A DNA stretch of 64,000 nucleotides from Candidatus Rifleibacteriota bacterium (GCA_012520995.1 JAAYNI010000010.1:7671-71670); one strand, 5' to 3'; shown: positions 13,156 through 49,259, counted from the stretch's first letter. Numbers and translations are program-made. The notes: generated by a model not told the origin, from the letters alone.

Positions 13156-13509
13156 ATGTCATCAAATTTAACTATAAATCATAGAACTGAAGGCGATGTC
13201 TGCGTTATAGTTCCTTCCGGTTATCTGGACGACCATGGCGGAGAAGTCCTGTTGGACTTCATTGAAAGCCAAATCAATCTTGGATATAAATTCTTCGTTA
13301 TTGATTTTACGGGAACCCCTGTAATTAACTCGCAAGGGATAGCCCACCTTCTGGAAACAACAGAAATAGTAGCAGACGAAATTGCAGGAGCCATAGGTTT
13401 TACCGGTCTTACCCAGCTCTCTTACAATGTATTCCAGATGATAGGCCTTCTTCAAATGGGCACTTATTACCAAACACCTGATGAAGCCATAGCAGGAGTA
13501 ATTGAATAA
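13156..13509 (+). CDS. STAS-domain protein / anti-sigma-factor antagonist (SpoIIAA-like)
   Basis: 117 aa with a STAS-like pattern (VCVIVPSGYLDDHGGEVLLDFIE...FVIDFTGTPVINSQGIAHLLE). Confidence 0.65.
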   Translation: MSSNLTINHRTEGDVCVIVPSGYLDDHGGEVLLDFIESQINLGYKFFVIDFTGTPVINSQGIAHLLETTEIVADEIAGAIGFTGLTQLSYNVFQMIGLLQMGTYYQTPDEAIAGVIE

Positions 13510-13538
13510 AAAACATTCAGCTCTCTTTAGAGGGAAGC

Positions 13539-15641
13539 ATGCAAACAGCCAACTCCTATCATTCTGGCCACTTCCGGAAGAAAAGCGGTTTTATTTTAGC
13601 AATTGTATTAGTTGCCGGTTTTTTCTTAGTAATATTGGCAACCGCAATTTACTTTCTCACTTCATCCAACCGCGTCAACATCAGCAGAATATTAAACGGA
13701 GAGAAAGCCCATTTAGCGGCAGAAGCTGCATTGAGCTTCGCCATAGCCGACTTGCGCAAAGAAATAATTAAAATAGGCGAGGGAAGAGCCAACCAAAATC
13801 TTCTAGAACTTCTTCTGCAACCCGGAGCGATAGAAAACAAAGAAATAACCGGCTATATTTCCTTTGATAAAATGGACAGTCTAAACCGCCATTTCAGACA
13901 GCATGATCCTGACACCTCCACCGCAATTAAAATATACATAGAACAGCTTCACTTAACTGAAACAGATCCTTCAAGATGGAATGACCCCGCAGTCAAAAAA
14001 GGATTGATAAAAATAGAAGCAAAAGCCAGATGTAAAGGTTCTGAAAGAAGTATCTCTGTTATAAGATCCATAAATGTGGCGAATATCTTGCCTGGTCCTT
14101 TGTCCAAGTTCACCTTTTTCATGAAAAAGAATAAAGAGAACTCACAAGGACAATTCAATCTTATTAAAAATGATTATCAGGGTGACAATACAAACGGTCC
14201 CAGACCCTTGATTCTTTATAATCACAGACTACCGGAACATGGCGCAGATCTTAACGAGATTCTTTCTGAAGAAAAAAAAATAGATATATGGCAAAAGCGC
14301 GGATGGGTGAGCTTGAGCGACTCCACAACTGTTCTTAATCTCTGTTCAGGAGCTGGCAAATATGGAGAAGTATTTCAATTTTATGAAATAAAAAATACTC
14401 TAGACTTTCAACCTGTAAAATTTGAAACTCCAAAAAGCGATTTGCCCCCTAAGTTCTCGCAAACTTTAACATTGCCTTGGGACAAGGCACATCAGAGCAT
14501 AAAAATGATGGATTACAATTTTTCCCATCATTATGTCTTGGACGGCTTTCATGACAAAAGCTCCAGAAAAAACACAAACGCTATGTATGAAGGCAACATA
14601 CTGTCCAGCGATGAGATGAACCGTTACGGATCCGCTTCTTCAATACTGCATCTTTACGGTGACACTCGGTTGGGTTATCAATCACGAACAAAAGTATTCG
14701 GCAGAGTTTATTCGGCTTTCATACGTTTTGCAAATCTGGAAGTCGAACCGACAGATTCATTTTTAAAAAGCACTCTAAACAGCGTTTCTCCTCCTCCCGT
14801 ATATCTGCTCCCATCAAAAAGTCCCTTTGAATACACCCCCGCTCTGGACATCACAGAATTTTTAAACAGAACTATAGGCGGTCCTATTTTAAAAGCGGGA
14901 AACCTGTTTAACTCCTACAAAGAATATATGAATTTTATGAGCCGCATAATAATGCAGCCTTACAATACTTCCTATAATATAATGCAAGATGTCTATAATA
15001 GAACATACCCAAGAACTTTCCCAACTAGAACATCTATAGTGCCTGACTTCCCCAACAGAAATATCACCCTCTCAAAAAACGACTTCACATATTTTTCAGG
15101 AATCCCATCTCTTGAAGGAACAGCTGAGCTAATGAAAAGCAGAGCGACTCACAAAGTGAAAACGATTGCAGACTTCAAGGAAAAATTCTTTAATAACAAT
15201 AATGACTTGGAACTCAACGAGATATTGATTATAGAAAACCTTGAAAACAAGACCCTATATTTACCGCCAGACAGCACCTCGGGTACTATGAGAGTCAAAG
15301 CAGGCGGAGCTATAATTCTTGAAAGAGGCCAACTGGTTTTAGGCGGAATTAAAATGGAAAATCCTAGCGATTCCTTAACCTTGGTAAAAATGTCGCCAGG
15401 AACAATTGCATTTACCTCTTCAAGTCCAGTTCAAGCCAACATCATAGCCCCCAACTCTTCTTTGGGTTATACAAGCTATTTTTCACTTCATGGCACTCTC
15501 GGAATAGAGACTGTTATCCCTGAAAATAACTTTCGAGGCGGAGAAATTTGCTTTAACTGCGATCAAGATCCGACTCAAGAGGGCTATGAGAAATATTATA
15601 GAATATACTTAGGTAAAAATGACAGCTACTATATTAAATAG
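13539..15641 (+). CDS. large PilX-N-like (type IV pilus minor pilin/tip-associated) protein
   Basis: An N-terminal hydrophobic segment is followed by ...KAHLAAEAALSFAIADL, matching the PilX_N pattern (GxAL...AEAG). It sits directly upstream of two prepilin-like genes. Confidence 0.5.
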   Translation: MQTANSYHSGHFRKKSGFILAIVLVAGFFLVILATAIYFLTSSNRVNISRILNGEKAHLAAEAALSFAIADLRKEIIKIGEGRANQNLLELLLQPGAIENKEITGYISFDKMDSLNRHFRQHDPDTSTAIKIYIEQLHLTETDPSRWNDPAVKKGLIKIEAKARCKGSERSISVIRSINVANILPGPLSKFTFFMKKNKENSQGQFNLIKNDYQGDNTNGPRPLILYNHRLPEHGADLNEILSEEKKIDIWQKRGWVSLSDSTTVLNLCSGAGKYGEVFQFYEIKNTLDFQPVKFETPKSDLPPKFSQTLTLPWDKAHQSIKMMDYNFSHHYVLDGFHDKSSRKNTNAMYEGNILSSDEMNRYGSASSILHLYGDTRLGYQSRTKVFGRVYSAFIRFANLEVEPTDSFLKSTLNSVSPPPVYLLPSKSPFEYTPALDITEFLNRTIGGPILKAGNLFNSYKEYMNFMSRIIMQPYNTSYNIMQDVYNRTYPRTFPTRTSIVPDFPNRNITLSKNDFTYFSGIPSLEGTAELMKSRATHKVKTIADFKEKFFNNNNDLELNEILIIENLENKTLYLPPDSTSGTMRVKAGGAIILERGQLVLGGIKMENPSDSLTLVKMSPGTIAFTSSSPVQANIIAPNSSLGYTSYFSLHGTLGIETVIPENNFRGGEICFNCDQDPTQEGYEKYYRIYLGKNDSYYIK

Positions 15642-16107
15642 CAAACTTCAAAATGCCTTTGCTAAACGTTCTTCCTTAAGAACGCTTAAAAAGAGGCAGA
15701 CTGCTTTTTCATTGACTGAGCTTTTAATTGCAATGGTCATACTGGAATTGATTCTTCTGCCCATTACAATAACCTTTTCAACAAGCAGCAAAAATATCTC
15801 TGTCTCCGAACAAGCCTTCATCAAGCATCTACGAGCCTTAGAAATAACAGAACAAATAATAGCTCTCGACTTCAATGTAATTCCCTTGGGACATTTTGAT
15901 GATGACAACTTGAAAGAAGGAATCAAGCTTAACAACGACATTAAATATATGCTTCACTTGACTGATTCTCCTGGATTGCTGAGAGAACTCTCAATTGAAG
16001 CAGACTCATCAAATAACTTCAAATCTATTAAGATAACAATTAAAAGCCAAAGCAATGATGAAAAACCATTTGTTTTGGTCACAATAAAAGCGAACGAAAA
16101 TGCTTAA
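15619..16107 (+). CDS. prepilin-type (type IV pilin/pseudopilin-like) protein with a non-canonical cleavage motif
   Basis: The N-terminus reads KKRQTA|FSLTELLIAMVILE, a class-III leader with Glu at +5 and Phe at +1 but Ala at -1 instead of Gly. It overlaps the upstream gene by 23 nt. Confidence 0.55.
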   Translation: MTATILNSKLQNAFAKRSSLRTLKKRQTAFSLTELLIAMVILELILLPITITFSTSSKNISVSEQAFIKHLRALEITEQIIALDFNVIPLGHFDDDNLKEGIKLNNDIKYMLHLTDSPGLLRELSIEADSSNNFKSIKITIKSQSNDEKPFVLVTIKANENA

Positions 16108-16663
16108 ACCTCTTAAAAATAAAGCCTTTACCCTAACAGAGCTCTTGGTAACTGTAGCTATTACTGGAATTCTGATGACAACTCTTTATTCATTATTCTC
16201 TGCCATGACAAGAAACTATAGTAAGCAGGAATCCTCAAACAAAGCTCTTCAAGAGACTTCACTTTTCATGGCTCAATTAAGGCAAGACATAAACAACGCA
16301 ATTTTCTATGACTCTCTTTTGCCTCAAGAAACACAGTTCTCATCTGAAAACGGGGAGCTCAACTTCAAAATTTATGACAACCACACAGGCAACACAGAAG
16401 AGATATTTTACAAAGTCATACAAAGCGGCAACGAAATAAAGGTTATTCGCACTTTTCAACACAAAGAAAAAGCCTTTGAAACAGAGTCCTTTGAAAGCCT
16501 GCAAATGGATTTTAAATTTTCAGAAAAACAGACTGAAGGCGAAGAAACCCTCTATTCACCCTTAGCTCTCCATGTTCAGCTCAAGGCTGTACAAAAAAAA
16601 GGGAAGGACTTTATATTTAATACTTATTTAGTGCCTATAAGAGCTAACCGCCAACTACTTTAA
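16100..16663 (+). CDS. prepilin-type (type IV pilin/pseudopilin-like) protein
   Basis: The N-terminus reads LKNKA|FTLTELLVTVAITGILM (F+1, E+5, Ala at -1). It overlaps the upstream gene by 8 nt. Confidence 0.6.
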   Translation: MLKPLKNKAFTLTELLVTVAITGILMTTLYSLFSAMTRNYSKQESSNKALQETSLFMAQLRQDINNAIFYDSLLPQETQFSSENGELNFKIYDNHTGNTEEIFYKVIQSGNEIKVIRTFQHKEKAFETESFESLQMDFKFSEKQTEGEETLYSPLALHVQLKAVQKKGKDFIFNTYLVPIRANRQLL

Positions 16664-16765: not shown

Positions 16766-16841
16766 ACTGAATTTATATTGGCATTTGTTGAAAATTTAAT
16801 TATAATTATTATGTAGAGATGTACAGAAAAAGGAAAGCCGC

Positions 16842-18467
16842 ATGAAAAAAACAATCAGCATAATGCTCTTTTTAGCTTTAATGCTCTTTAATACATATAA
16901 TTATTATCTTTGGGCAGACGAAATCCCTCCCTCATATAAAGAAGGAGAAACTCAAGAAACAACTCCTCCTGCTCAACAAGAGGGAGAAAAAGATGAAAAC
17001 CAAGAAGGGGAGACACAGCCGCCAGAAGATATAACACCTCCCCCCACTCCCGTCACCCCGCCTAAACCTCCAAAACCGCCTCTGACACCCGAACAAGAGA
17101 TTTTTGAAGAATATGGAGTTATCTTCAAATCTGAATCAAAGATTCTCTCTTGGGATACTTCTAAAGTTCAAGCTATAAAAGAAGTTCTTGAATCTGTGCC
17201 CAAAAGCTTTTCATCTTCCACGAAAGTCTTCTATCTTCTCTCCACTTACGAACAATTCGAAATCAAATACAATGGCTTTAATCGCGAATTTGGAGTGGTT
17301 CAATTTGGAGCAGGGGCTCTTGAAGCCTCAAGACCTTACAATATAAAGTTTAAAAATGTCTATGGCTCAGAACCATCCACCACGGACTTGATAAACAGAT
17401 TTAAGGCCATGGCCGCAAGAGGCATGACCTATGCTTATCTCCAAGAAAACCCAGAAATCCCCAGAAAATACAGAGGAGTTCTGAAAAACAGAAACTTCTC
17501 TGAAGTTACCAAGCTTTATGGGCCAGCACAAGAAACCTATATGGTTGTAGCTCCCGGCAAAGACGATATGTGGATAGACTTGGCCTTCGCTGTTGAGATG
17601 TATTTAACAAATCAGGGCGAGCTTAGCTCAATTTGCCCGGAAAGAGCCAAATTTGTAAAAGAAGAAATTTTCGGAGGGGAAACAGTCAAGACTTGGCCAT
17701 ATAAACCTTTACATAAAAAAATAGACCAACCCTCTGTCAATCCCGATCCAAATCCCGATCCAAATCCCGATCCTAATCCCGATCCTAATCCCGATCCAAA
17801 TCCCGATCCTAATCCCAATCCTAATCCCGATCCTAATCCCGATCCTAATCCCGATCCTAATCCCAATCCTAATCCCGATCCTAATCCTAATCCCGATCCT
17901 AATCCCAATCCCAATCCTAATCCCTCTCAAGGCAGCAGATATGTTTTGGAACCATTAAACACAAACAATCCTGGTCCTCCCGTAGAAGAGGAACAAGATG
18001 GGCAACCCTATATTCCTGAAATAGCTGTAATTCAGCAAGGAGGAGCGCTAGACTTGCCTGGAGGCATGAATGAAGCAATAATCGATCTCTGTAAACAGCT
18101 GAATGTTTCTTTCAGCGGCTCAACCGCTGCAATCGGCTATTTAACAACCATTGACACAAAAGATGCCTTTTCACGTGAAAGCTACATATTTGTAACCCAG
18201 AATTCTTGGCATCCATTCTTAGACTCTGAGCGCACAAAAAGATTCCAAGAGATTCTCTTGAGAGAAATGGCTTTCAGATATGCTTATCACAAGGCAGATG
18301 TACTTATAAAGTGGAAACGAGACTTTTCTATGGCCAACGACTATGATGCAATTAACAGTTTTGCAGAAACGGTAATAATGTACATGAACGCTCCTGGACA
18401 TCTGCAAACAATAAACGAAGATCGTTATAAGTTCCTGACAAATGAAGTTAAGCTGAAAAGACCCTGA
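16842..18467 (+). CDS. secreted protein with a Pro-rich N-terminal region and a central (NPDP)n repeat linker
   Basis: Signal peptide MKKTISIMLFLALMLF. Residues 300-360 are almost pure DPNPDPNP... repeats. The flanking domains are unrecognised. Confidence 0.65.
   Translation: MKKTISIMLFLALMLFNTYNYYLWADEIPPSYKEGETQETTPPAQQEGEKDENQEGETQPPEDITPPPTPVTPPKPPKPPLTPEQEIFEEYGVIFKSESKILSWDTSKVQAIKEVLESVPKSFSSSTKVFYLLSTYEQFEIKYNGFNREFGVVQFGAGALEASRPYNIKFKNVYGSEPSTTDLINRFKAMAARGMTYAYLQENPEIPRKYRGVLKNRNFSEVTKLYGPAQETYMVVAPGKDDMWIDLAFAVEMYLTNQGELSSICPERAKFVKEEIFGGETVKTWPYKPLHKKIDQPSVNPDPNPDPNPDPNPDPNPDPNPDPNPNPNPDPNPDPNPDPNPNPNPDPNPNPDPNPNPNPNPSQGSRYVLEPLNTNNPGPPVEEEQDGQPYIPEIAVIQQGGALDLPGGMNEAIIDLCKQLNVSFSGSTAAIGYLTTIDTKDAFSRESYIFVTQNSWHPFLDSERTKRFQEILLREMAFRYAYHKADVLIKWKRDFSMANDYDAINSFAETVIMYMNAPGHLQTINEDRYKFLTNEVKLKRP
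17738..17923 (+). repeat. perfect or near-perfect hexanucleotide tandem repeat (aatccc / gatccw / aatcct), about 31 units, in frame within the 16842 CDS
   Basis: Read directly from the sequence. The units encode the N-P and D-P dipeptides. Confidence 0.9.
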
Positions 18468-26052: not shown

Positions 26053-29000
26053 ATGACTCCGAAAATTTATCTCGAAGAAATATGTGACAGAGAAAATCTT
26101 AAGACCTTTGTCTCACGCTTTGCACATTTTACAGACGTAAATGCGGTACCTGTAAACGAGCGCGGCGAGGCGCTTTTTGACAATCTCCACCAGATACTTC
26201 CCGGAGTGGAAGATTTCAATGAGTTTGCAGCCTATCCTGCCTCTGAAATGATACAACGCCCCGATGGTTCTCACGTAAAGCTTATGAAGCTTATGAACGG
26301 CTCTCAGCATTACGGCTCAGTCTTGCTGGGTCCATTTTTCTTTGAAGGAGAAAACAAAGGCGAAAGCTCTGCTCCATCATTGTCTAAAAAGACCCTCGAA
26401 ATTATGACTGAGATGATTACAGAGTTTTTTGAAAACTCTATAAAACTCTACGAAGAACGCAGAGCCCTTGCAAAAAAAGAAAAGATTCTCTCTGTACTTG
26501 AAAAAGCTTCCAGCGTAATGAACACCAAAATAGAATTCCAGAATCTTCTGGAATTTCTCATGGATATCTCCATAGATATAACAGGAGCTGAAGGCGGCAC
26601 AATTCTTCTCAGAGAAGAAAACAGCGACAATCTGGTAATTACTGTAGCCAGGGGCAAATACCCCCAAGAAGTCAAAAAGGTAAAGGTTCCTATAGGTTCC
26701 GGGCTCACTGGCTGGGTAGCCAAATACAAAAAGTCACTTAACGTTCCAAACGTTCTCTTAGATCCCCGCTACATCGAAACACCCGAATCCATATATTCGG
26801 AACTAGCCGTTCCGATGGTAATAGTAGAAAGAACCATAGGCGTACTGGTTGTCAATTCTTCGGAGATCAACGCTTTCACAAAAGAAGATGTCCAGACTCT
26901 CACTACTCTGGCTTCCATAGTAACAAAGGTTCTTGAAAACTCAAGACTCCTCTCTGATTCTGATCAGAAGCTGAGAGAGCTTTCAAAGCTCTTTACTATT
27001 TCTGAACGCCTTTCAGTCAGAAGCCTTGACAGAGCTGGCTACTGCGACATCTTAGGACAGCTTTCTGAAGCGCTCCTTACAGATGCGGCATCTCTCATGC
27101 TTTTCAACAGTGACAGAGAAGAACTAACAATGAGAGCTTCCTATGGCCTGCCAGAAGAGCTCGACAGCCTGACAATAGCCAAAGGGAAAGGCTATCACGG
27201 CTGGGTTGCGGCTCAAATGACTCCAATTCACATTCACAACACAGCTCTCGATAACACAATTGCTCACGCATGTTTTTTAGACGAATTCTCCAAATCTTTG
27301 ATGATCATACCATTGATCAATGCCGAAGAGCGCTTGGTCGGTCTTATCGGTGTTTACAGCAATGAAGACAAAGGCACTCTTTCCGAAGCATCAGCAGATC
27401 TTTTAATGGCGGTCGGAAGAATAGTGACAGCCCACCTTGAAAACGACAGGCTCTTCAACGACTCCAGAAGAAAGCTCGATTATCTTTCCACTCTCTACAA
27501 GGTCGGTTCTTCAGTTTCAAAAACCCTTAACATCACCCCGCTCTTCGAAACTATATTGCAGCAAGTTCAAGAAGTAATGGACGTTGAAAACTGCTCGCTT
27601 ATGGCCTATGATTCCATCCGCAAGAAACTTACCTTAGATGCGGCTATAGGCTTGCCAAGCGATATGGTCGGCAAAGTAGAATCAGATCTCGGCGAAGGTA
27701 TAGCTGGCTGGGTCGCAGCAAATAAAAAGCCTGTTCTCCTCAAAGATATATCCAAAGACGCAAGATTTGCCAAACGCAACGGCAGACTTGACTATAAAAC
27801 ACGTTCCGTTCTTTCTGTACCGATATTGCACCAAGAAGACCTATTAGGCGTTTTAAACGTGAACAACAAAAGAAGCGGTGATGCCTTCTTTGAAGACGAC
27901 TTGAATCTGCTTCTAGGCATTTCCGGCCAGATCTCCCAAGCCATAGCCAACGCCAGCCTTCACGAAAAAACTGACATGCAGGTTGCCGAATTGAGCCTCA
28001 TCCAAGAACTTGGCAAGGCTATCAACTCCTCTCTGGATCTTGATTCTGTCTTGAATTATTTCATAGATATGACTACCAGAATCACTGAAGCCGACAAATC
28101 AACCTTAATGCTCTTCGACGAAGAAACTCAAGAGCTTTATGTTGAAGCTAGCAGAGGTTTTGAAGATGAAAATAAAATCAATGATGTCAGATTAAAACTT
28201 GGCGAAGGCATAGCAGGTCAGGTAGCTCTGTCTCATAGACCTATGAAGCTTGACAATGTCACAGCCAGCAAGGAATATACTCTCTTGGACTGCCTGAAAC
28301 GTCCAAAAGATCTCACTCTTATGACCGCGCCTCTGATTAACAAAGAGCAACTTATCGGCGTAATAAACTGTGAACGCCTCTTGGAAAAGAAAGGTCCTTT
28401 CACGCCCGAAAACCTTGACCTTCTTGACACATTAGCTTCACAGGCTTCTATTGCTATAGAAAACGCGAGGCTCTATCATAATCTGCTGAGTGTCTACCTT
28501 GAAACCATTAGATCTCTTGCAGCAGCTATTGACGCTAAAGACTCTTATACTCACGGACACTCCAGACGTGTTACAGAGATAAGCGTAGGACTGGCTATGG
28601 AAATGAATCTGCCTAAAAACGAAGTAGATACCATACGCCACGCCTCTTTGCTTCACGACGTAGGCAAAATAGGCATATCAGACAAGGTTCTGCTTAAGCC
28701 TGGCAAATTGACAGATGATGAATTTGAAACAATCAAATCACATCCATTCATAGGCGCCCGCATTCTTGGCTCCATCGAGTTTCTCAAAGATGTCTGCGAA
28801 ATAATAGAGCATCATCACGAAAGGTTTGACGGCAAAGGATATCCTGACAAACTCAAAGGCGATGAAATACCTTTGGGTGCAAGAATTATCTGCCTTGCAG
28901 ACTCTTTTGATGCCATAACCTCATGCAGACCTTACAGAAAGCCGCTGACTTTTGAGGCTGCCACTGAAGAAATGTTACGCTGCTCAGGCACTCAGTTCGA

Positions 29001-29130
29001 CCCTCAAGTAGTAGACGCTTTCTTGAGGCTTAGAACCTCAAAATACTGTCCGCCTTGGTTGCTTTCCTTCCCCTCAACAGAAACAGAAACAGAAGAAAAG
29101 TGTCTGAACGTGACAACTCAGGAAATCTGA
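26053..29130 (+). CDS. multi-GAF-domain HD-GYP phosphodiesterase (c-di-GMP signalling)
   Basis: Several GAF-like modules are followed by the HD-GYP signature (HDVGKIGI...HHERFDGKGYPD). Confidence 0.8.
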   Translation: MTPKIYLEEICDRENLKTFVSRFAHFTDVNAVPVNERGEALFDNLHQILPGVEDFNEFAAYPASEMIQRPDGSHVKLMKLMNGSQHYGSVLLGPFFFEGENKGESSAPSLSKKTLEIMTEMITEFFENSIKLYEERRALAKKEKILSVLEKASSVMNTKIEFQNLLEFLMDISIDITGAEGGTILLREENSDNLVITVARGKYPQEVKKVKVPIGSGLTGWVAKYKKSLNVPNVLLDPRYIETPESIYSELAVPMVIVERTIGVLVVNSSEINAFTKEDVQTLTTLASIVTKVLENSRLLSDSDQKLRELSKLFTISERLSVRSLDRAGYCDILGQLSEALLTDAASLMLFNSDREELTMRASYGLPEELDSLTIAKGKGYHGWVAAQMTPIHIHNTALDNTIAHACFLDEFSKSLMIIPLINAEERLVGLIGVYSNEDKGTLSEASADLLMAVGRIVTAHLENDRLFNDSRRKLDYLSTLYKVGSSVSKTLNITPLFETILQQVQEVMDVENCSLMAYDSIRKKLTLDAAIGLPSDMVGKVESDLGEGIAGWVAANKKPVLLKDISKDARFAKRNGRLDYKTRSVLSVPILHQEDLLGVLNVNNKRSGDAFFEDDLNLLLGISGQISQAIANASLHEKTDMQVAELSLIQELGKAINSSLDLDSVLNYFIDMTTRITEADKSTLMLFDEETQELYVEASRGFEDENKINDVRLKLGEGIAGQVALSHRPMKLDNVTASKEYTLLDCLKRPKDLTLMTAPLINKEQLIGVINCERLLEKKGPFTPENLDLLDTLASQASIAIENARLYHNLLSVYLETIRSLAAAIDAKDSYTHGHSRRVTEISVGLAMEMNLPKNEVDTIRHASLLHDVGKIGISDKVLLKPGKLTDDEFETIKSHPFIGARILGSIEFLKDVCEIIEHHHERFDGKGYPDKLKGDEIPLGARIICLADSFDAITSCRPYRKPLTFEAATEEMLRCSGTQFDPQVVDAFLRLRTSKYCPPWLLSFPSTETETEEKCLNVTTQEI

Positions 29131-33921: not shown

Positions 33922-35442
33922 TTATAAATTAATGGGTTTATATTGTTCAAAAAGTTTTTTGTCGAAGGCTCTCATGTAGGCTTCAACAGGAGCTATTCTC
34001 CTTTGCTTGACCAAGTCCATCAAAGACTGATCCATCGTTTGCATTCCTTGTTGCTTGCTGGTTTGCATAATTGAGTTCAGCTGATATGTTTTATTGTCTC
34101 TGATACAGTTTGCAACCGCAGGAATGTTTATAAGTATTTCCAAAGCTGCGACTCGGGAAGATCCGTCAAGAGCAGGAATCAACTGCTGAGCTAAAATAGC
34201 ATTTAGCGAATCAGCTAGTTGAGTTCTTATTTGGCTCTGCTGACTTCCCGGGAAAACGTCTACTATTCTTTCAATTGACTGAGGCGCAGAAGGGGTGTGC
34301 AAAGTAGCAAAAACTAGGTGTCCAGTCTCAGCTGCCGTTACAGTCAAAGCTATAGTTTCAAAGTCACGCATTTCGCCCACCAATATTACGTCAGGGTCTT
34401 CGCGCAAGGAAGCTCTTAGAGCATTGCTAAAGTTTTTGGTAGTGCTTCCTACTTCACGCTGACTAACCAAACATTTATTATGAGAATGCACAAACTCAAT
34501 CGGATGCTCAATAGTTATTATATGCTCCTGACGTTCTTTATTAATCAGATCAATCATAGCTGCAAGAGTAGTGGATTTGCCTGAACCTGTCGGACCTGTT
34601 ACAAGCATAAGTCCCTTTTTCCTTCGGGTCAAATCTGCCAGCACAGGAGGCATGCCAAGTTCCTGCAGACTCTTTATTATGTTAGGAATAACTCTGAAAA
34701 CTGCGCCTAAGCCCAACCGCGTGTAAAAAACATTACAGCGAAAGCGTGCCAAGCCATGAATTTCATAAGCCATATCGAGCTCAAGAGTATCTTCCAGTTC
34801 TTCTTTCTGTTCGTTTGTCAAAAAGTTAAAAAGCATTCCTTTAACGTCTGAATCATTCATCACAGGCAAGTCTGTTGCCCAAAGCTTGCCTTGCAAACGA
34901 AGCATAGGAGGAGCGCCAACCGCTATGTGCAAGTCGGAACCGGCTTCAGCGACTACCATCTGCAAAAGATCGTCAATAGTTACTACGGCTTCGCCTCCGC
35001 TGGCACCGTCTTTCTCTGCACCGTAGGTAACGTTGCTTTTACCATCTAAAACCTTGCGAGTGCTAAGAGCAGAGGAGCCTCCCGCACGTCTTGCAGGAGC
35101 CTGTATGGTCGGATAGCCCTGAGCCGTTGCAGGTCTTGCAGGAGCCTGTATGGTCGGATAGCCCTGAGCCGTTGCAGGTCTTGCGGGTTGCAATGGTCTT
35201 CCCGCTTGAGCCGGCATAGGTCTATTAGGAGCAGCAGCAGCCGGTCTTGCGCCTTGAGAAGGAACAGAAGTTGCCGGCGCAGGTCTTCTAGGCGTTATAC
35301 TCTGCGGAGCCAAATTAGCAAGGTCATCAAAATTTGGCGTTGCCTGTATGGCTGGTCTCTGCTGCGAGTTCGCCTGTACATCCGTTTGGGGATCTTTTCT
35401 TTCTTCCTTCGAACCGAAGAATTTTCCTATAATATTATCCAT
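33922..35442 (-). CDS. pilT: type IV pilus retraction ATPase PilT with a roughly 180-aa Pro/Ala-rich N-terminal extension
   Basis: Walker A GPTGSGKSTT, LHTPSAPQSIERIVD, and the PilT-specific ...NCIRDNKTYQLNSIMQTSKQQGMQTMDQSL. The N-terminal 180 aa are low complexity. Confidence 0.8.
   Translation of the reverse strand: MDNIIGKFFGSKEERKDPQTDVQANSQQRPAIQATPNFDDLANLAPQSITPRRPAPATSVPSQGARPAAAAPNRPMPAQAGRPLQPARPATAQGYPTIQAPARPATAQGYPTIQAPARRAGGSSALSTRKVLDGKSNVTYGAEKDGASGGEAVVTIDDLLQMVVAEAGSDLHIAVGAPPMLRLQGKLWATDLPVMNDSDVKGMLFNFLTNEQKEELEDTLELDMAYEIHGLARFRCNVFYTRLGLGAVFRVIPNIIKSLQELGMPPVLADLTRRKKGLMLVTGPTGSGKSTTLAAMIDLINKERQEHIITIEHPIEFVHSHNKCLVSQREVGSTTKNFSNALRASLREDPDVILVGEMRDFETIALTVTAAETGHLVFATLHTPSAPQSIERIVDVFPGSQQSQIRTQLADSLNAILAQQLIPALDGSSRVAALEILINIPAVANCIRDNKTYQLNSIMQTSKQQGMQTMDQSLMDLVKQRRIAPVEAYMRAFDKKLFEQYKPINL
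35089..35178. repeat. exact 45-bp tandem duplication (2 units) inside the pilT N-terminal extension
   Basis: The unit tcttgcaggagcctgtatggtcggatagccctgagccgttgcagg occurs twice with 100% identity and encodes PATAQGYPTIQAPAR twice. Confidence 0.9.
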
Positions 35443-35445
35443 CTT

Positions 35446-37101
35446 TTAAAATTGCCTCATGAATTCTTTTGGGGCTATTTCTCCATCCAAGAGAAGTTGC
35501 AAAGCTTGTTCTTCACAACTGCGTATACCTTGTCTTGCTCCATATTCCTTGAGTTTGGAATAGTCGGGAGATTCTATAATAAGTTCTGTCAACTCACTAT
35601 TTATGGGGTAATACTCCAGCAACATCTTTTTGCGCAAATTGCCGGTTGAATTACACTGGGGACAGCCAGTCGGTTCATAAAGTTTGTGTTCCCAATAGTG
35701 TTCAGGCAAATATTTTTTAAGCTCATCCGGAAATTCCACAGGCTTTTTGCAAGCCGGACAAAGAGTTCGCACTAGGCGCTGGTGAGCAAAGCCGCACAAG
35801 GATGAAGCTAAAAGACGGGGATCCACAACTTCCAAGAGTCTGATAACTGAATCACAGGCATCAACCGCTGACAAACTTATAACAACTGTTTTACCGCCTG
35901 CCGCAGAATACGCCAAAAGTTCACAAGAATCGGCATTGTCCTCACAGTCAAGCATTATTACGTCTGCATCTAACTTAACAGCAAGTTTTACTGCATCGTG
36001 AGTTTCGCTGAAACCGTCCGTGCCCACTTTAAGCTGAGTTACCATTGGAACAATAGACTCTATATTCTTTTCTATAGTAACAATCTTGCTGGCCGTAACA
36101 TCAAACTTTTTCAAAAGAATATGCTGAGTTACAGTTTTCCCGGATTCTCCAGGCCCGCTAAGATAAAGAACGCCGCTATTGGCTAAGAGACTTTCCCCCA
36201 AGAGATCAATAGCTTCCCTTGAGGAAGGATCCATGGTATTTACAACATTCTCGACATCTGAAATGCTAATTATGAGACTCTCACTCTCAGCACCTGGATA
36301 AAACATGCAACTGAGATAGGCTCGTTTACCGCTGTTGCTGGACACAACTCTGAAGTGTCCTGAAAGCACTGATTCTGCAGCATCTTCAGGAATATTGGAA
36401 AGCTTTTTCACTCTCTGTAAAATTTCTGAATGAAGCTTAAGGGGAATTTCCAGTTTGGTCATAAGAACGCCATGCTTCCTAAAACGCACAGCAACATTAT
36501 CATCCGATGTTTCAAAATGTATTTTTTCAACCGAAGATGCAAGAGCGTTTGAAAGAATATAGTTCAAAACCTTGTCGGGAGTCTGCAGGTCTTTTTCTGA
36601 TTCAGCATGCATATCTCCTTCACCCAAGGCTTCAATTTGAGGCGGCATGTCTCCATTAGCACTTGCAGACTGTCCATAAAGAAGCGGATAAACAGCTTCA
36701 AAGTCTTTGGCTTTAGCTATAGAAACAGAAACATTAACAGAATATTTTTTTTCCAAATACTCTATTGGCCTGGAATCCAGGGGGTCTGTCATGCAAACAT
36801 TTAACTGATTGCCTGCTCTGTAAAGAGGTATTATGCGATATTGCAAAGCAAACTCAGGGCTAATCATAGGCACAACTTCAGGATCTATTATATCCATGTT
36901 GAGATGTATACATGATAAATTAAGTTGATTGCCTAGCGCCCATATGATGTCATCTTCTGTGACAAAACCAAGCTCTATAAGAGCCTCGCCAAGTCTTATG
37001 TCGTTGGCTTTCTGGTATTTAAGAGCCTCAGCGACCTGTTCGGCCGTTATAAGATTACAGTCTGTCAATATATCGCCTAAGCGTTTTTTTTCGACTGTCA
37101 T
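35446..37101 (-). CDS. type IV pilus assembly / type II secretion ATPase (PilB/GspE family)
   Basis: N-terminal T2SSE_N-like domain (LGDILTDCNLITAEQVAEALKYQ...), a variant Walker A GPGESGKT, and a C-terminal tetracysteine CPAC...CPQC. Confidence 0.8.
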   Translation of the reverse strand: MTVEKKRLGDILTDCNLITAEQVAEALKYQKANDIRLGEALIELGFVTEDDIIWALGNQLNLSCIHLNMDIIDPEVVPMISPEFALQYRIIPLYRAGNQLNVCMTDPLDSRPIEYLEKKYSVNVSVSIAKAKDFEAVYPLLYGQSASANGDMPPQIEALGEGDMHAESEKDLQTPDKVLNYILSNALASSVEKIHFETSDDNVAVRFRKHGVLMTKLEIPLKLHSEILQRVKKLSNIPEDAAESVLSGHFRVVSSNSGKRAYLSCMFYPGAESESLIISISDVENVVNTMDPSSREAIDLLGESLLANSGVLYLSGPGESGKTVTQHILLKKFDVTASKIVTIEKNIESIVPMVTQLKVGTDGFSETHDAVKLAVKLDADVIMLDCEDNADSCELLAYSAAGGKTVVISLSAVDACDSVIRLLEVVDPRLLASSLCGFAHQRLVRTLCPACKKPVEFPDELKKYLPEHYWEHKLYEPTGCPQCNSTGNLRKKMLLEYYPINSELTELIIESPDYSKLKEYGARQGIRSCEEQALQLLLDGEIAPKEFMRQF

Positions 37102-41243: not shown

Positions 41244-41498
41244 TTATAAATTCTCTGGTTTCTGTATTTTTTTCAAAAATTCCGACTGCAGAGATTTCAG
41301 CTTTTCTTCAGAAAGCGGCTTGCTAGCCTCAAGGTTTGAACGCTGAATTTCTTCATAGACTTCTTTTCTATGAATTTTCACGCTTTTTGGCGCTTCAATT
41401 CCTATTCTGACAGTGTCTTTGCCTATATCCACAATGACAATTTCTATGTCATCATCTATAACAATTTTCTCGTTTGTTTTTCTGGTTAGAACAAGCAT
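41244..41498 (-). CDS. csrA: carbon storage regulator CsrA with a roughly 25-aa C-terminal extension
   Basis: MLVLTRK..E.IVI.DDIEI.IV..G...[14 protein letters not shown]. Confidence 0.85.
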
Positions 41499-41998
41499 TA
41501 TTTAGCCGCCTCTTGTTTTTTCGCAGCCAAAGACTCGCTGTATTCCACAATTCTCTTATTTCTCTTCTCAATCTCGGCAAGAATAGAAGTTCGGACATCG
41601 TGCTCCGGATCATTGGAAATAATTTGGGCGGCTTTTTTGTTCTTTTTATTGATGACCAAAGGACCTTGCAAATTAGCCGTCATTTTTTCAGCATCTTCGG
41701 GAATAGAGACCGTTACATAAATCAAAGCATCAGCCGGATCCGCCAATTCCAAAGGATTACGATCTTCAGACGATATTTCGATATTGTATTCAAACATGAA
41801 CTGCAAAGGCTCAATCACAATAAAAGCTAAATTTTCGTTATCCAGCGAGTGAAGCCACCTGAAAGGTGTTTTATCGTCCAGTTTTAGCAGAGCATAACGT
41901 TTATAGTCTTCAAAGCCTAAGAGACCTTTTCCAAAGTTGATTATTTCGCTTTCATTAATATCTAATTCGCCAAATCTTGAGCTCTTAAATTTCATCAC
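41498..41998 (-). CDS. fliW: flagellar assembly factor FliW with a C-terminal extension
   Basis: The F..GLLGFE....Y.LL......PF.WL.S.D.....F.VI.P pattern. The stop overlaps the csrA start. Confidence 0.8.
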
Positions 41999-42018: not shown

Positions 42019-45000
42019 TTATCCTAAAAAATTCATGAGCGACATCTGCATAAGCCTTGCTCCAACCTGCAAAGAAGCTTGATAAGATGCGGTCATCTCA
42101 TTCATTTTCATTATTTCTTCAATTATGTCAGCCTGACTTACTTTATTGAGCATCTTATTAACATTCAGATTGAGATTAGTCATTTTTTCTTCTGAATATT
42201 TTGCTCTGTTCGTCTTTACGCCCACTTCCGAATGCACATTCAAAAGTCTTCGTAAATCGCTTTCAAGACCAGGCAATGTGATATCCGAAACAGCTTTGAC
42301 ATCGCCCCTTAAAAGGCTGTCGCGTAAATCTATCAAAGTAGTAAACAAAGAGCGGCCAGGAGAAAAACCTAAAGCTCCTGCAGCTCCTTTAGAATCAGCC
42401 GGCTCCAATACTTTTATATAGTCTTTGCCAGCCCAGTTAGAAATATTGAGGCTTTTCTTGTCAGCAGAAATCCATGCCTGAGCCTGCATGTCAGGAACAT
42501 TATTGGAAATTGTATTGATAACGTCTCCGACAGTTTTGCATTCGGAAAGGTCTATTTCACCTGAGAATGTGCCGCTTTGAATGTAGATTTTGCCGCCCGG
42601 AAAACCTTCGCGCAAATCTTCTAAGCGGGTTCTTTCTGTAAGAGCGGGGTCCAAATCTTCACCCACAATCTTATGATCCACCGTTCTGCCTATAATGCCC
42701 AAATCATGACCGCAAGTGCTGTCAACGTCTACAACTTCCAAATGGCCAGTTGCGCCTCGGTTCAGGTCTTCTATTTCTATGCCGTTTTTATCGCTGTTAA
42801 TCTTGGCTCTGATATAAAGTCCATTTGAAGGATCGTTTATCTTATCCAGAACATCCTGAATACTCTCTGAACCGCGCAAATCTATAGCTTTGAAACGGCC
42901 GGCTTTGTCAGTGATCCTTATAAAACCCAGATTTACCCCGCTGGAATTGAAAGTTCTGTCGCTGTTGAGATCGCGCAAAAGAGTTTTTTCAGTGAGTATA
43001 GGATCCAAATCCTTGGCTCCTTCAAGAGTAGGCAGACTTGAAATCTTTACGGGAGTTGAAACTATCTTGACCTGATCATATACGGAAGCATTCTTGATAA
43101 AGCCCAAATCGCCAGCTGTATTTGAACTTTCTCTTGCTGCCAAAAAGCTCTTCGCATCGCCGTCTCGCGCTCTAATAAAAATTCTTTTTTCGCTGTCATC
43201 CCAAGAAGCTGTGTAAAAACCGCCGCTGTTGTTTATTCTGTCTATAACATCTTGAATAGTCGATGCGCCTTCGAGAGAAATTCGTTTTTCTTCACCATAT
43301 TCAGCATTTAAAACTACAGCGCCCTTAGCAGAAGGAGGGGGAATCAAATCTGCAAGCGGTGTATTCGCATTCAATGGAGAAGAAGCGGCAATAGGATCGC
43401 CTATCAAAGATGTGCCTTTGGTTTCTTTCAAGAGCCCTAAAGATTTGGCGGCTATTGTATCTTCTGAAACTTGAATTTGAGCTGTTCCGTCAAATTCTTC
43501 TATCGTGAAGTCGGAAGCGCCCAAGGTTGTATCAGTGATTCTTATTCTGTTTGAACCTGTATCATAAGAAGCCGTTTGAGCTCCGCCTGTTTGTGTATTT
43601 ACAGCCGCTATAATATCATCCGGAGTCTTGGCTTCAGAAATATCTACGTTTCTGGAAACGCCATCATGCCCAGTTATAGTTATAAATCCGCGTCTGAAAC
43701 CCTTGCCATCATTTATATTTTCCAAAGGGCTTTCGACAGAGTCCATAGCTATATCAGTCTTGGAGTAGAGCACACTTCCTGGACCAGCGTTATCAACAAG
43801 ACCCAAGTCAGCAGCAGTGCTTGGCGGCAATGCCTTTATATAAAACTGCGTTTTTTCCGAAGTTACCGAAAACTCGCCTTTGCCTTCTGTGAGGTTTTTT
43901 AATTCTATTCTTTTGTGAACCATGTCATAAGAAGCTCTTACAACCGAGCCGCCTGCATGGGCATTGATTTTGTCTATCACATCTTTGACAGTCACAGAAC
44001 CGGTTAAATCTATTCTGTGAATTTTTCCGTCTCTTGAAGCTATATTGAGATAACCGTCAGGAACCCCTAAACCTGCGTTCAAATCTGTAAGAGGCGTAAA
44101 CTCTGAACGCATTGCAGGGTCAGAAAGACCATAAATTTTGGAAGCATTGCCGGCATTTCTGTAAAGACCCAAAGCTGCAGCCGTATCTGATGGAACCTGT
44201 TCCAAACCTGCTTCAAAAGCCCCGGTTTCATTGATTTTATCCAACATCATCTGAATGTTGAAAACCTGAGTCAAATCAACCCTGTACTCTACGCCTGCCC
44301 GGTCTGATATTTTTATATATCCGCCCTGAACACCTCGTCCGCCATTCAAAACAGTAAGGGGCATAGCTTTTTCAAGAGGGGGCATTTGAGAAGAAAATGC
44401 GGGAGCTTCATTCGGAAGTCCGCCAAAAAACATTTCCAGAGCCGTAAAGCTTTTGCTTAGAGTAGCCCCTCTGTCAACTTCGCTCTTAAGACGAATCTCA
44501 TTGCCGTTATATCTGACACCGACTACGCTGTCTTCGTTGATCTTAGAGCGTTCCACACCATGCCCGTGAGTAACAATGGAAGTATTGAATTCGCCGTCTT
44601 TGCCCAAAACCAGTTCTATAGGCTTAATATTCGTATTGCTTCCGCTGAATATGTATTCTTCGCCTATTCTGGTGTTGGCTATGTTTGCAATTTCTTTCAT
44701 GAGCTCTTCGACTTCCTTAGCCATAGCATCTCTTTCGAGCTCTTCAAAAGTATCATTGGCTCCGCGAACAGCCAGCTCTTTAATGCGATGTATGATAGAC
44801 TCGGCGTTGGTCATAGCCCCGTCGCTTTTGGCATACCAGTCGAGAGAATGTTCTATATTCCTCAAGTATTGGTCATTTTCAAAAGCGTCGGTTCTCAGCT
44901 TCATAGCTATAGCGTTATCCGCAGGGTTTTCCGAAGGGGAAAGATATTTGCGGTTGGAAGCTATCTTTTCCTGGCTTGCCGCCAAGTTTGAAAAGTTGTT

Positions 45001-45051: not shown

Positions 45052-45072
45052 TTCATTCTCCTATAAAAAATC

Positions 45073-47519: not shown

Positions 47520-49259
47520 ATGAGAATGACACTTAAAAGACGAGGAGTGGCTCTATCTTTTATTCTTGGAGTGGTCAGCTTTATAAGCATTCTGCTTTTC
47601 GGAATGATATATCGGATGCGCGGAGAAACAGTCTTGTCGGGCAACTATGTAGATGCCACGGCAGCTTTGATATTGGCTGAAGCAGGAGCAGAAGAAGCGC
47701 TTTTCAACATGCGGACTCAGCTGAACAATCCCGATTATCCTCTATACAAGCTGGTAGCCAATGAAGACAGCGGATCTTTGATGGTAGACACAGAGAGACT
47801 GGCGAAAGGCGATACAAATGTAGCTCCGCTTCTGCAAAAGAGTGATATAAAAGTTCAAGTAGATTGGCAGCTGGACAAAGCCGCCACTCAAAATCTTATA
47901 TCTCAGGGAGTTCCCCCCGGAGTCGCCAGACAAGGCTATATAACTATAAACTCCATGGGAAAACACAACAACACCAAGAAGCAGATTGAAATGAAAAAGC
48001 TTTTGAAAGCGGTTCTCATGAAAACTTCTGAAGACAAAGAAACATTAGGTGTAGTGGCTCCCGCTCACAGCTTTTTTGCCGACATGGTCAAAAAGGACTC
48101 CTTTGAGATAGCGAAATTCGATATTCTTGACCCTTGGGGCTTTACGGTAAAAGGCGGCAAGGCTTACTTTAAAAACGGAGCTGTTGTAGACCTTCCAAAA
48201 TGGCTGATGCTCACTAAACTTTCCAATCAGCTTGAGCACCCTTGGATAGACATGGGAATAGGCTGGACAGGCTGGAACGGCGGCGCCGATTTCAGCGAAA
48301 CTCAGCTGGAATACACAGATTCGCCTGTAAAACGACACTACAACAAATGGCAGGGTCCATTCTCTTTCCCTTGGTGGCAGGGCAACAGCAGCGAAAAATA
48401 CCATGCCGAAACAACTCAAGTCGGCGAATATTCCGACAAAGACCTGAATATCTATCCGGCTTCTGTTTATAAGTCTTTGGCTACTAGAGTCATAGACCCT
48501 AAAGAGAATCCAAAACATGGCAAATATTTTACAAACGTAAAGTTTCAAGAAGCGTTTGGCAGAAACGAAGTAAATTACACCAACGTTTTGCCAATGTATG
48601 GCTGGGGCGACTGGAGAAACGTTCCAAACAAATTCTCCAGCATCTTCAGCAACCCTACAAAAGCCCACGACTTCAGCAGAGCTGTAGAAGTTAATGGCAT
48701 AACCTATGTTAAAGGCGATGTTTTTATAGAGGGATGGGTAAAAGGGCAAGGTCTCTTAGTGGTAGAAGGAAACGTATATGTTGGCGGCGACATACTCACC
48801 ACCCTAGATGAAAACGGTAATGAGTCGGCACTTGGCATAATAGCATTGCGCGACAAAACTCACGACACTTCATCTGACAACCCCAGAACCGGCCGAATAA
48901 TCTATGAACCCCATCACGACAGCGACTGGTCCAGATACGGAATTACTCACCCCTTCAGAAACTTAAGCCCGAGGCTTGAAGGAGCCTTCTACGCTGAAGG
49001 CGGCATGGAGCTGAAAACTGATTCATCCATGAAAAAACTCATAAACATGGACATAATAGGTAATCTGGCCGTCGGATATTTCAACAGAAAAAAAATGCCA
49101 AACGATGTAAGAGTTACTTACTTTGACTGGCAAAAAGTTCTAGAGAATTCAGGCAATGAGAACATGACAGTCAGCACTACTGTTTCATACTCAGATATAT
49201 ACAATGTGGCGATCCAAAAGCCTTTAATATCTTGGAGAGAAGTCACGGCTACACTCTAA
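47520..49259 (+). CDS. large PilX-N-like (type IV pilus minor pilin/tip-associated) protein, paralogous in architecture to 13539..15641
   Basis: The N-terminus KRRGVALSFILGVVSFISILLFGMIY...ATAALILAEAGAEEALFNM follows the PilX_N pattern. The C-terminal region is beta-rich (VKGDVFIEGWVKGQGLLVVEGNVYVGGDI). Confidence 0.5.
   Translation: MRMTLKRRGVALSFILGVVSFISILLFGMIYRMRGETVLSGNYVDATAALILAEAGAEEALFNMRTQLNNPDYPLYKLVANEDSGSLMVDTERLAKGDTNVAPLLQKSDIKVQVDWQLDKAATQNLISQGVPPGVARQGYITINSMGKHNNTKKQIEMKKLLKAVLMKTSEDKETLGVVAPAHSFFADMVKKDSFEIAKFDILDPWGFTVKGGKAYFKNGAVVDLPKWLMLTKLSNQLEHPWIDMGIGWTGWNGGADFSETQLEYTDSPVKRHYNKWQGPFSFPWWQGNSSEKYHAETTQVGEYSDKDLNIYPASVYKSLATRVIDPKENPKHGKYFTNVKFQEAFGRNEVNYTNVLPMYGWGDWRNVPNKFSSIFSNPTKAHDFSRAVEVNGITYVKGDVFIEGWVKGQGLLVVEGNVYVGGDILTTLDENGNESALGIIALRDKTHDTSSDNPRTGRIIYEPHHDSDWSRYGITHPFRNLSPRLEGAFYAEGGMELKTDSSMKKLINMDIIGNLAVGYFNRKKMPNDVRVTYFDWQKVLENSGNENMTVSTTVSYSDIYNVAIQKPLISWREVTATL

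Follow-up and report, generated by a model that had tools for sequence, protein, structure and literature searches.

Type IV filaments are initiated at their tip by a complex of minor pilins, GspK-GspI-GspJ or PilK(PilX)-PilI(PilV)-PilJ(PilW), in which GspK is the large, GspI the smallest and GspJ the mid-sized subunit (PMC7248040). The cap subunit PilK/GspK 'invariably lacks Glu at +5', and its last β-strand is critical and can be supplied in cis (PMC13533445). In ComZ, a competence-associated pilin of Thermus thermophilus with an inserted β-solenoid (PMC6561018), and likewise in CofB/TcpB and CpaL, a very large domain is added to a pilin N-domain, and small minor pilins adjoin. Here we describe a locus of Candidatus Rifleibacteriota in a stretch of 64,000 nucleotides (GCA_012520995.1, JAAYNI010000010.1:7671-71670; hereafter the window) from a contig that originates from biogas-fermenter metagenomes. 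At positions 13156-16663, four plus-strand genes encode a STAS-domain protein, a large pilin-like protein (P700) and two small prepilins (P162 and P187). The three pilin-like genes constitute a unit that is conserved across the phylum. We consider it fairly probable that their products form a complex that initiates a type IV filament and sits at its tip, similar to PilK-PilI-PilJ (GspK-GspI-GspJ) and encoded in the order K-I-J.

Several paralogous tip sets per genome occur in Myxococcus xanthus, as minor-pilin/PilY1 clusters (PMC7541494), and in cyanobacteria, as core minor-pilin sets (bioRxiv 10.64898/2026.02.12.705559). Presumably, they serve to prime a single machine for differing functions (PMC7541494; bioRxiv 10.64898/2026.02.12.705559). 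These sets keep the order I-J-K(-Y1) together with a recognisable PilY1 or PilX, whereas the Riflebacteria fuse a large domain to a pilin that appears K-like.

Gene anatomy of the locus

The four genes were read directly from the sequence (Table 1). An initial annotation of the same DNA had reported four open reading frames (ORFs), and on re-reading its coordinates matched exactly, as did the overlaps of 23 nt between P700 and P162 (15619-15641) and of 8 nt between P162 and P187 (16100-16107). The gene calls of NCBI for the same metagenome-assembled genome (MAG) are identical (NLM16321.1 to NLM16324.1); P187 (NLM16324.1) is named 'type II secretion system protein' there. The annotation had called the genes co-translated. 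This term is too loose, but the overlapping frames are kept in relatives, which suggests a translational coupling of the trio genes.

All three pilin-like proteins carry the elements of a class III signal, that is a basic leader, Gly or Ala at position -1, a hydrophobic residue at +1 and about 20 hydrophobic residues. In a six-frame motif scan of the 64 kb, P162 and P187 were the sole true prepilin ORFs. The view that these are minor-pilin-like genes, and not the gene of a major pilin, was supported by our analysis.

Table 1 Positions of the trio, its predicted cleavage sites and other features of the window (↓, predicted cleavage site)
Feature	Position	Strand	Description	Basis or remarks
P700	13539..15641	+	Pilin-like protein, 700 aa	Class III-type leader Gly17↓Phe18, Glu+5 absent
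Predicted prepilin-peptidase site of P700, Gly17↓Phe18	13587..13592	+		Sequence reading; conserved in orthologue alignment and loci
P162	15619..16107	+	Small prepilin, 162 aa	Ala29↓Phe30, Glu+5, N_methyl match
Predicted cleavage site of P162, Ala29↓Phe30	15703..15708	+		Motif scan, sequence reading
P187	16100..16663	+	Prepilin, 187 aa	Ala9↓Phe10, Glu+5, N_methyl match
Predicted cleavage site of P187, Ala9↓Phe10	16124..16129	+		Motif scan, sequence reading
STAS protein (NLM16321.1)	13156..13509	+	Single-domain protein, 117 aa	SpoIIAA/anti-sigma-antagonist-like
P541	16842..18467	+	Secreted protein with (PDPN)n repeat	Conserved neighbour 3' of the trio in the STAS-bearing clade
PilT-family retraction ATPase	33922..35442	-	Candidate motor	TIGR01420, 465 bits (cut-off 319)
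PilB/GspE-like assembly ATPase	35446..37101	-	Candidate motor	Pfam T2SSE and MshEN c-di-GMP-binding N-domain
Second large pilin-like protein (NLM16349.1)	47520..49259	+	579 aa, annotated 'hypothetical'	Leader KRRG↓VALSF, without Glu+5

Conservation of the trio in Riflebacteria

A genome scan with one genome per species yielded 46 loci, all of them from Riflebacteria MAGs, a few of which are mislabelled. The order P700-P162-P187 was the same in all 46 loci where the contig was long enough, and the frames usually overlapped. The conserved unit is this trio and not the set of four genes. A comparison of gene neighbourhoods in relatives had been proposed as a check in the initial annotation, and it brought out the conserved order of the trio across the Riflebacteria loci. 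Several paralogous copies of the trio are present per genome, including free-standing ones such as those in locus L036 (3349-6484) and locus L055 (proteins of 693, 152 and 197 aa). A literature search on pili of Riflebacteria returned nothing relevant.

The surroundings of the trio differ between clades. In Ozemobacteraceae-type loci, three pilin-like genes lie directly 5' of P700, two with and one without Glu at +5. They make up a second conserved set, observed at L049 (7994-10004) and L002 (8291-9790) and also in the rumen-clade MAG of L051 (6692-8556), where it is located 5' of the STAS gene and preceded by the gene of a secreted protein of 1860 aa; the window contains no homologues of this set. 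Searches of all fetched loci with Escherichia coli GspO, GspG, GspF, GspE and GspD (phmmer) detected GspF/GspG-like genes in the Ozemobacteraceae loci L038 and L049. In both, a GspF/PilC-like gene and a GspG-like pilin precede the trio at a distance of 8-10 kb; the leader of this pilin reads KKAG↓FTLVE in L049. There, these genes are followed by more pilins (one without Glu+5) and by PilM/GspL-like and GspM-like genes. The trios of the Ozemobacteraceae loci L002 and L049 are followed by paired HAMP-guanylate-cyclase genes.

P700, a large pilin-like protein without Glu+5

P700 begins with the leader ...FRKKSG↓FILAIVLV, with Gly at -1, Phe at +1 and no Glu at +5. Its orthologues have Gly at -1 in all cases, followed by a hydrophobic helix, and Glu+5 in none. 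The 54 full-length homologues (35-45% identity) all stem from Candidatus Riflebacteria/Ozemobacteraceae, are all annotated as 'hypothetical' and have no Pfam domain. The family is wider than this set of orthologues: a profile search against 1.84 billion representative proteins recovered 404 clusters (E ≤ 0.001), and full-length proteins of 650-800 aa were frequent among the highest-scoring matches. Several paralogues are encoded per MAG, and three members of the family come from a single one.

Profile searches with P700 found no match in Pfam, NCBIfam or the PDB sequences and no N_methyl hit. The P700 of the window likewise gave no hit with the hidden Markov models of the GspK/PilX family (T2SSK; PilX_N, PF14341), so that a membership in this family is not indicated. 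PilX_N matched 2 of 32 family members at a sub-threshold level (best E 0.019), and alignment to E. coli GspK by hhalign covered the N-terminal helix alone, with a probability of 1%. P700 shares three traits with the GspK class, a class III leader, the absence of Glu+5 and the rank of largest subunit in its set. The initial description of P700 as PilX-N-like is supported to the extent of a PilX-N/GspK-type N-terminus.

An AlphaFold2 model was calculated from a 32-sequence alignment (mean predicted local distance difference test score, pLDDT, 81.8; predicted template modelling score 0.79). It contains an N-terminal helix of 65 residues (16-80) and a three-stranded β-sheet (127-182), which together would form a pilin-like head. 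About 500 more residues follow and end in a β-rich, solenoid-like region. A long N-terminal helix of pilin type, followed by a β-sheet, is common to the models of P700 and P187. A Foldseek search of the PDB with the P700 model returned nothing at E ≤ 0.001. The top match, ComZ (6qvi), was not significant (E 0.035, probability 0.23, template modelling (TM) score 0.16-0.20) and was followed by local matches to ice-binding β-helices; both are to be taken as leads only. The extreme C-terminus of P700, with the consensus DSYWNE, belongs to the most conserved segments of the protein, which is compatible with a C-terminal β-strand supplied in cis as in GspK. We propose that P700 is a PilK/GspK-like cap subunit.

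The 579-aa protein encoded at 47520-49259 shares a homologous N-domain with P700 (93.8% probability in hhalign, residues 5-163 against 11-178) and has no match to a Pfam or NCBIfam family. Its gene is divergent from flgK and is not followed by small pilin genes; it thus encodes a solitary large pilin-like protein.

P162 and P187, two small prepilins

Both small proteins pass the thresholds of the prepilin models. P162 scored 21.5 bits with Pfam N_methyl (PF07963, cut-off 21.2) and 16.8 bits with TIGR02532 (cut-off 16.3), and P187 scored 29.1 and 24.8 bits, respectively. Their sequences around the predicted site are KKRQTA↓FSLTELLIAMVIL in P162 and KNKA↓FTLTELLVTVAIT in P187. Direct reading gave ...LKKRQTA↓FSLTELL for P162 (Ala29 at 15703-15705) and MLKPLKNKA↓FTLTELL for P187 (Ala9 at 16124-16126), the same leaders with Ala at -1 that had been noted initially (KRQTA↓FSLTE and NKA↓FTLTE). 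The predicted mature lengths are 134 aa for P162, after a leader of 28 aa, and 178 aa for P187, after a leader of 9 aa.

The leader of P162 is highly basic and longer than the 5-13 residues found in its orthologues, owing to an insertion of about 18 residues (window 15619-15705). An alternative start that would remove it was sought, but no in-frame ATG, GTG or TTG lies between the ATG at 15619 and the motif, and the NCBI calls agree; the 28-residue leader is therefore real. Glu+5 is invariant in both orthologue families and the residue at +1 is hydrophobic throughout, being Phe in 38 of 43 P187 orthologues. Word-indexed searches gave few relatives of P187, and its orthologues were drawn from the genome loci instead.

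The assignment of the two proteins to classes of minor pilins is based on size, Glu+5 and sub-threshold leanings. In the P162 family, sub-threshold matches were most commonly to XpsI/GspI (12 of 30) and ComGE (12 of 30), and also to PilV; in the P187 family they were to ComGF (17 of 29 members), and also to GspH and GspJ. Scores with GspI and GspJ (TIGR01707, TIGR01711) and with ComGE and ComGF were far below the cut-offs and involved the N-terminal 30-75 residues only, which does not establish membership in these families. With hhalign, the P187 family aligned to E. coli GspJ over residues 8-74 (probability 72%), and the P162 family to E. coli GspI by the helix alone. Profile searches with both families against the PDB sequences matched N-terminal pilin helices and nothing beyond. 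The AlphaFold2 model of P187 (8 sequences, pLDDT 76.6) shows a 54-residue helix (12-65) and then eight β-strands; Foldseek found nothing in the PDB at E ≤ 0.001. We propose P162 as a minor pilin of the PilI/GspI class and P187 as one of the PilJ/GspJ/ComGF class.

A proposed PilK-PilI-PilJ-like tip complex

As in GspK-GspI-GspJ and PilK(PilX)-PilI(PilV)-PilJ(PilW), three adjacent and apparently coupled genes encode pilin-like proteins, a large one without Glu+5 and a very small and a mid-sized one with Glu+5. The size pattern large, smallest, medium matches that of GspK, GspI and GspJ. The GspF/PilC-like and GspG-like genes that precede the trio in L049 and L038, and the PilT and PilB-like ATPases of the window, also speak for a type IV filament. 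In the model that we favour, the class III signal and the N-terminal helix would direct P700, P162 and P187 into the inner membrane, and the prepilin peptidase of the cell would cut after Gly in P700 and after Ala in P162 and P187. The replacement of Gly by Ala would be tolerated and neutral. Without Glu+5, P700 could not be placed beneath a further subunit and would take the apical position, where its extra domain of about 500 residues would be displayed as a cap, an adhesin or a receptor. P162 and P187, which keep Glu+5, would dock beneath P700 and template the polymerisation of a major pilin encoded elsewhere. The paralogous trios of a genome would then be alternative tips for one machine.

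P700 differs from GspK in its length (700 versus about 330 aa) and in its extra domain, which is different and β-rich. The locus also departs from the GspK-I-J arrangement in the order K-I-J, in the lack of an H-like fourth pilin in the window and in the presence of several paralogous trios per genome. Large pilins of the ComZ, CofB/TcpB and CpaL type are thought to sit at the filament tip, and by analogy P700 may do so as well. CofB and TcpB, unlike P700 in the proposed complex, act as homotrimers without I/J partners (PMC13533445).

Several observations weigh against a tip complex of this kind. The globular domains of the three proteins have no significant sequence or structure match to GspK, GspI and GspJ, and hhalign aligned the N-terminal helix only. 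The gene order is K-I-J in all loci, as opposed to the 'almost invariably syntenic' I-J-K (PMC13533445), and the arrangement is not that of a PilI-J-K operon. The Ozemobacteraceae have a separate, canonical-looking pilin set upstream, in addition to the three pilin-like genes before P700; because of these other sets, the trio is not the sole candidate tip set in their loci. Neither a prepilin peptidase nor a major pilin, platform protein or secretin turned up when nearly every window ORF of about 110 aa or more was scanned against Pfam; of the filament machinery, the window yielded the PilT and PilB-like ATPases only. The 10-kb flanks and the loci of the window's clade contained no peptidase, major pilin or platform gene. 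A phmmer search with E. coli GspO that covered the window, both flanks and every fetched locus detected no PilD/GspO homologue.

Part of this evidence can be read differently, in that the trio would be the tip not of a surface pilus but of a pseudopilus of the type II secretion system (T2SS) type or of a specialised device for secretion or display, and the large secreted protein next to each trio would be its cargo or partner. Large secreted proteins do flank the trios, namely P541 in the window, the 1860-aa protein in L051 and a 742-aa Beta_helix protein in L055; the linkage to a cargo is one of proximity alone. The upstream machinery in L049 and L038 begins with GspF-GspG, and L049 adds H-I-J-K-like pilins and GspL/M-like genes, with neither secretin nor PilT adjacent. 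In the window's clade, however, no GspD, GspC or GspL gene lies near the trio, and the PilT encoded in the window is a genuine one, a protein typical of retractile type IVa pili and not of T2SS. The T2SS name that NCBI assigned to P187 fits the secretion device at first sight, but it derives solely from the N_methyl motif. Taken together, we regard a T2SS-type device as unlikely.

The STAS gene and its flagellin-family neighbour

The STAS protein resembles SpoIIAA/RsbV-type proteins in its STAS domain, which measures about 115 aa and exceeds the Pfam threshold (PF01740, 25.4 bits versus 22.6), and in a conserved Ser of the motif INSQG, which we take to align with the phosphorylated Ser of SpoIIAA. 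It differs from them in its score with TIGR00377 (20.5 bits, below the cut-off of 53.45), in the lack of an adjacent kinase or anti-sigma-factor gene and in its conserved neighbour, which is a flagellin-family gene.

Orthologues of the STAS protein (phmmer E 1e-26 to 1e-32) precede the trio at 27 further distinct loci, corresponding to 29 locus identifiers of which two are repeat fetches, and all from one clade. Their identity is about 55-60% as judged by eye, and the motif SPVINSQGIA is invariant in all. In each of these 27 loci, a gene of the flagellin family (about 262-273 aa, with Flagellin_N and Flagellin_C) lies between STAS and P700, for instance in L051 (9183-10004) and L001 (8540-9328). 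Only in the window does STAS abut P700, with a gap of 30 nt, because the flagellin-family gene is missing there; the lineage of the window has lost the gene at this position. The locus of the window is also compacted relative to those of its relatives: the HEAT-repeat gene lies elsewhere and on the opposite strand, and P541 follows immediately downstream.

According to the initial annotation the STAS gene opens the cluster. The synteny survey does not bear this out, since the gene is a neighbour in one clade only, is separated from P700 by the flagellin-family gene elsewhere and is absent from Ozemobacteraceae-type loci, which keep the trio. STAS as a general member of the pilin operon was rejected on these grounds. 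We conclude that the STAS gene is a lineage-specific neighbour and not a core part of the unit; its product may be a partner-switching regulator. A literature search on links between STAS proteins and pili returned nothing relevant.

A functional role of STAS would be compatible with the tip complex proposed above. Its product would then act by phosphorylation-controlled partner switching and link the trio, in its expression or its assembly, with the flagellar system. In the window, STAS is co-oriented with P700, and no plus-strand terminator-like site separates the four genes, so that a co-transcription of STAS and the trio is plausible here. The synteny of STAS, flagellin-family gene and trio in the other loci points in the same direction, as does L051, where the STAS-flagellin pair lies mid-way in a cluster of six pilins. 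A gene for a SpoIIE-family PP2C phosphatase (459 aa; L052 14519-15898), a possible partner of STAS, is located beyond the left end of the window. On the other hand, the window contains no gene for a partner kinase or anti-sigma factor (HATPase_c), the trio persists in all Ozemobacteraceae-type loci without STAS, and the immediate neighbour of STAS in all other genomes is the flagellin-family gene and not a pilin. Synteny within one clade could, moreover, reflect shared ancestry alone. On the basis of this clade-limited synteny alone, STAS may have a regulatory connection with the pilins, yet we consider it unlikely that STAS is a functional part of the unit.

A broader scenario would describe the Riflebacteria as carriers of a hitherto undescribed family of modular tip cassettes, several per genome and each consisting of a P700-like, a P162-like and a P187-like gene, in which an apical PilK-like pilin is fused to differing large receptor or adhesin domains and provides interchangeable tips on one type IV machine. 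In one clade, a phosphorylatable STAS protein and the embedded flagellin paralogue would couple the choice between pilus and flagellum. We offer this scenario as a speculation of low probability.

Competence pilins and alanine at position -1

The trio might also be the module of a competence pilus for DNA uptake, with P700 as a ComZ-like DNA receptor at the tip and P162 and P187 as partner pilins similar to PilA2 or ComGE/ComGF. ComZ was the top Foldseek match of P700, albeit a non-significant one that does not amount to a ComZ-type similarity, and the leanings of the small pilins towards ComGE and ComGF concern the N-terminal helix only, at scores far below the cut-offs. The Pfam scans of the window ORFs revealed no comEA, comEC or dprA nearby, and the idea of one DNA receptor fits poorly with the presence of several paralogous trios in each genome. 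A competence module also finds a precedent for Ala at -1 in ComGC, but in all we consider it highly improbable.

The similarity to ComGC of Streptococcus pneumoniae lies in the leader, in which basic residues are followed by Ala↓Phe-Thr-Leu-x-Glu. For pneumococcal ComGC, mass spectrometry demonstrated cleavage after Ala15 as well as N-methylation in vivo (PMC3694846), and according to a description of PilD, this enzyme cuts 'at a glycine or alanine' (PMC3244431). ComGC is the major pilin of a monoderm competence pilus, whereas P162 and P187 appear to be minor pilins of a diderm in which Ala is polymorphic with Gly.

The cleavage motif was extracted from every orthologue in 47 Riflebacteria genomes. 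The residue at -1 was Gly in 35 and Ala in 12 genomes for the P162 family, and Gly in 25 and Ala in 19 genomes for the P187 family. Fitch parsimony on a neighbour-joining tree of P700 gave at least eight independent switches between Gly and Ala for P162 and at least five for P187. The two residues alternate among close orthologues while the rest of the motif is unchanged. Two rumen-clade genomes (L019 and L020) have Ala in both proteins, as does the window. Mixed cases also occur: in L002, Ala in the P162 orthologue is combined with Gly in that of P187, and of two more pilins encoded upstream, one has Gly and the other Ala. A 258-aa pilin of L051 reads KRKA↓FTLME. As both residues are present within single genomes, one peptidase per cell must handle Gly and Ala.

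The interchange of Gly and Ala, together with the ComGC precedent, lends indirect support to a cleavage and N-methylation of P162 and P187 by an A24 peptidase. The initial annotation had considered a prepilin peptidase with relaxed -1 specificity or, alternatively, unprocessed pseudopilins. The first proposal holds in so far as the peptidase must accept Ala; an unusual enzyme need not be invoked in view of ComGC and PilD. Judged from the alignments, Ala at -1 is a tolerated alternative to Gly, a known variant that is here a recurrent polymorphism.

Gly is reportedly preferred at -1, and Ala is said to lower the cleavage efficiency in PilA mutants of Pseudomonas aeruginosa. However, that P162 and P187 are poorly processed or unprocessed bitopic membrane proteins, for example regulators or scaffold parts, and not filament subunits, has in our judgement only a very slim chance despite the atypically long leader of P162, because Glu+5, which is invariant, and the hydrophobic residue at +1 become important only once the leader has been removed, Gly and Ala are exchanged freely in an otherwise constant motif, and ComGC is cleaved after Ala in vivo.

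Genomic context in the window

The two candidate motor genes form a two-gene operon on the minus strand (33922-37101). The PilT protein has an N-terminal extension of about 150 aa. The PilB/GspE-like protein is divergent, with scores of 201 bits for PilB and 193 bits for GspE, both below the equivalog cut-offs, and of 59 bits (cut-off 38) for NF053729, which represents the cyclic di-GMP (c-di-GMP) motif. Since no platform or pilin genes adjoin this operon, the type IV filament genes are scattered in the genome. We only infer a link between these ATPases and the filament of the trio.

Homologues of P541 were found 1-3 kb 3' of the trio in about 25 loci (phmmer E 1e-54 to 1e-80). P541 has no match to a known domain, and its long low-complexity (PDPN)n repeat is located at about 17700-17900. 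A promoter-like site at 16778-16806, before P541, is the best sigma-70-like match in the region.

Flagellar genes on the minus strand (42019-47076 and 41498-41998) encode an unusually long FlgL-like hook-associated/flagellin-family protein (1010 aa), FlgK (667 aa) and FliW. A protein of 1025 aa (26053-29130, plus strand) contains four GAF domains and a domain of the HD/HD-GYP type (HD_5) and is possibly involved in cyclic-nucleotide signalling.

Implications

The Ala at -1 itself matters little, and annotators should keep prepilins with this residue and not discard them. More useful is an uncharacterised, phylum-wide, multi-copy family of pilin-like proteins of about 700 aa that has no relative in Pfam, NCBIfam or PDB and is always accompanied by two small minor pilins in the order K-I-J. 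If the trio is indeed a tip complex, it would provide the current model of tip-initiated assembly of type IV filaments with a further, independent case of a PilK that carries a large fused domain. The family would also offer a handle on the surface structures of an uncultured phylum that is common in anaerobic digesters, rumen and subsurface habitats.

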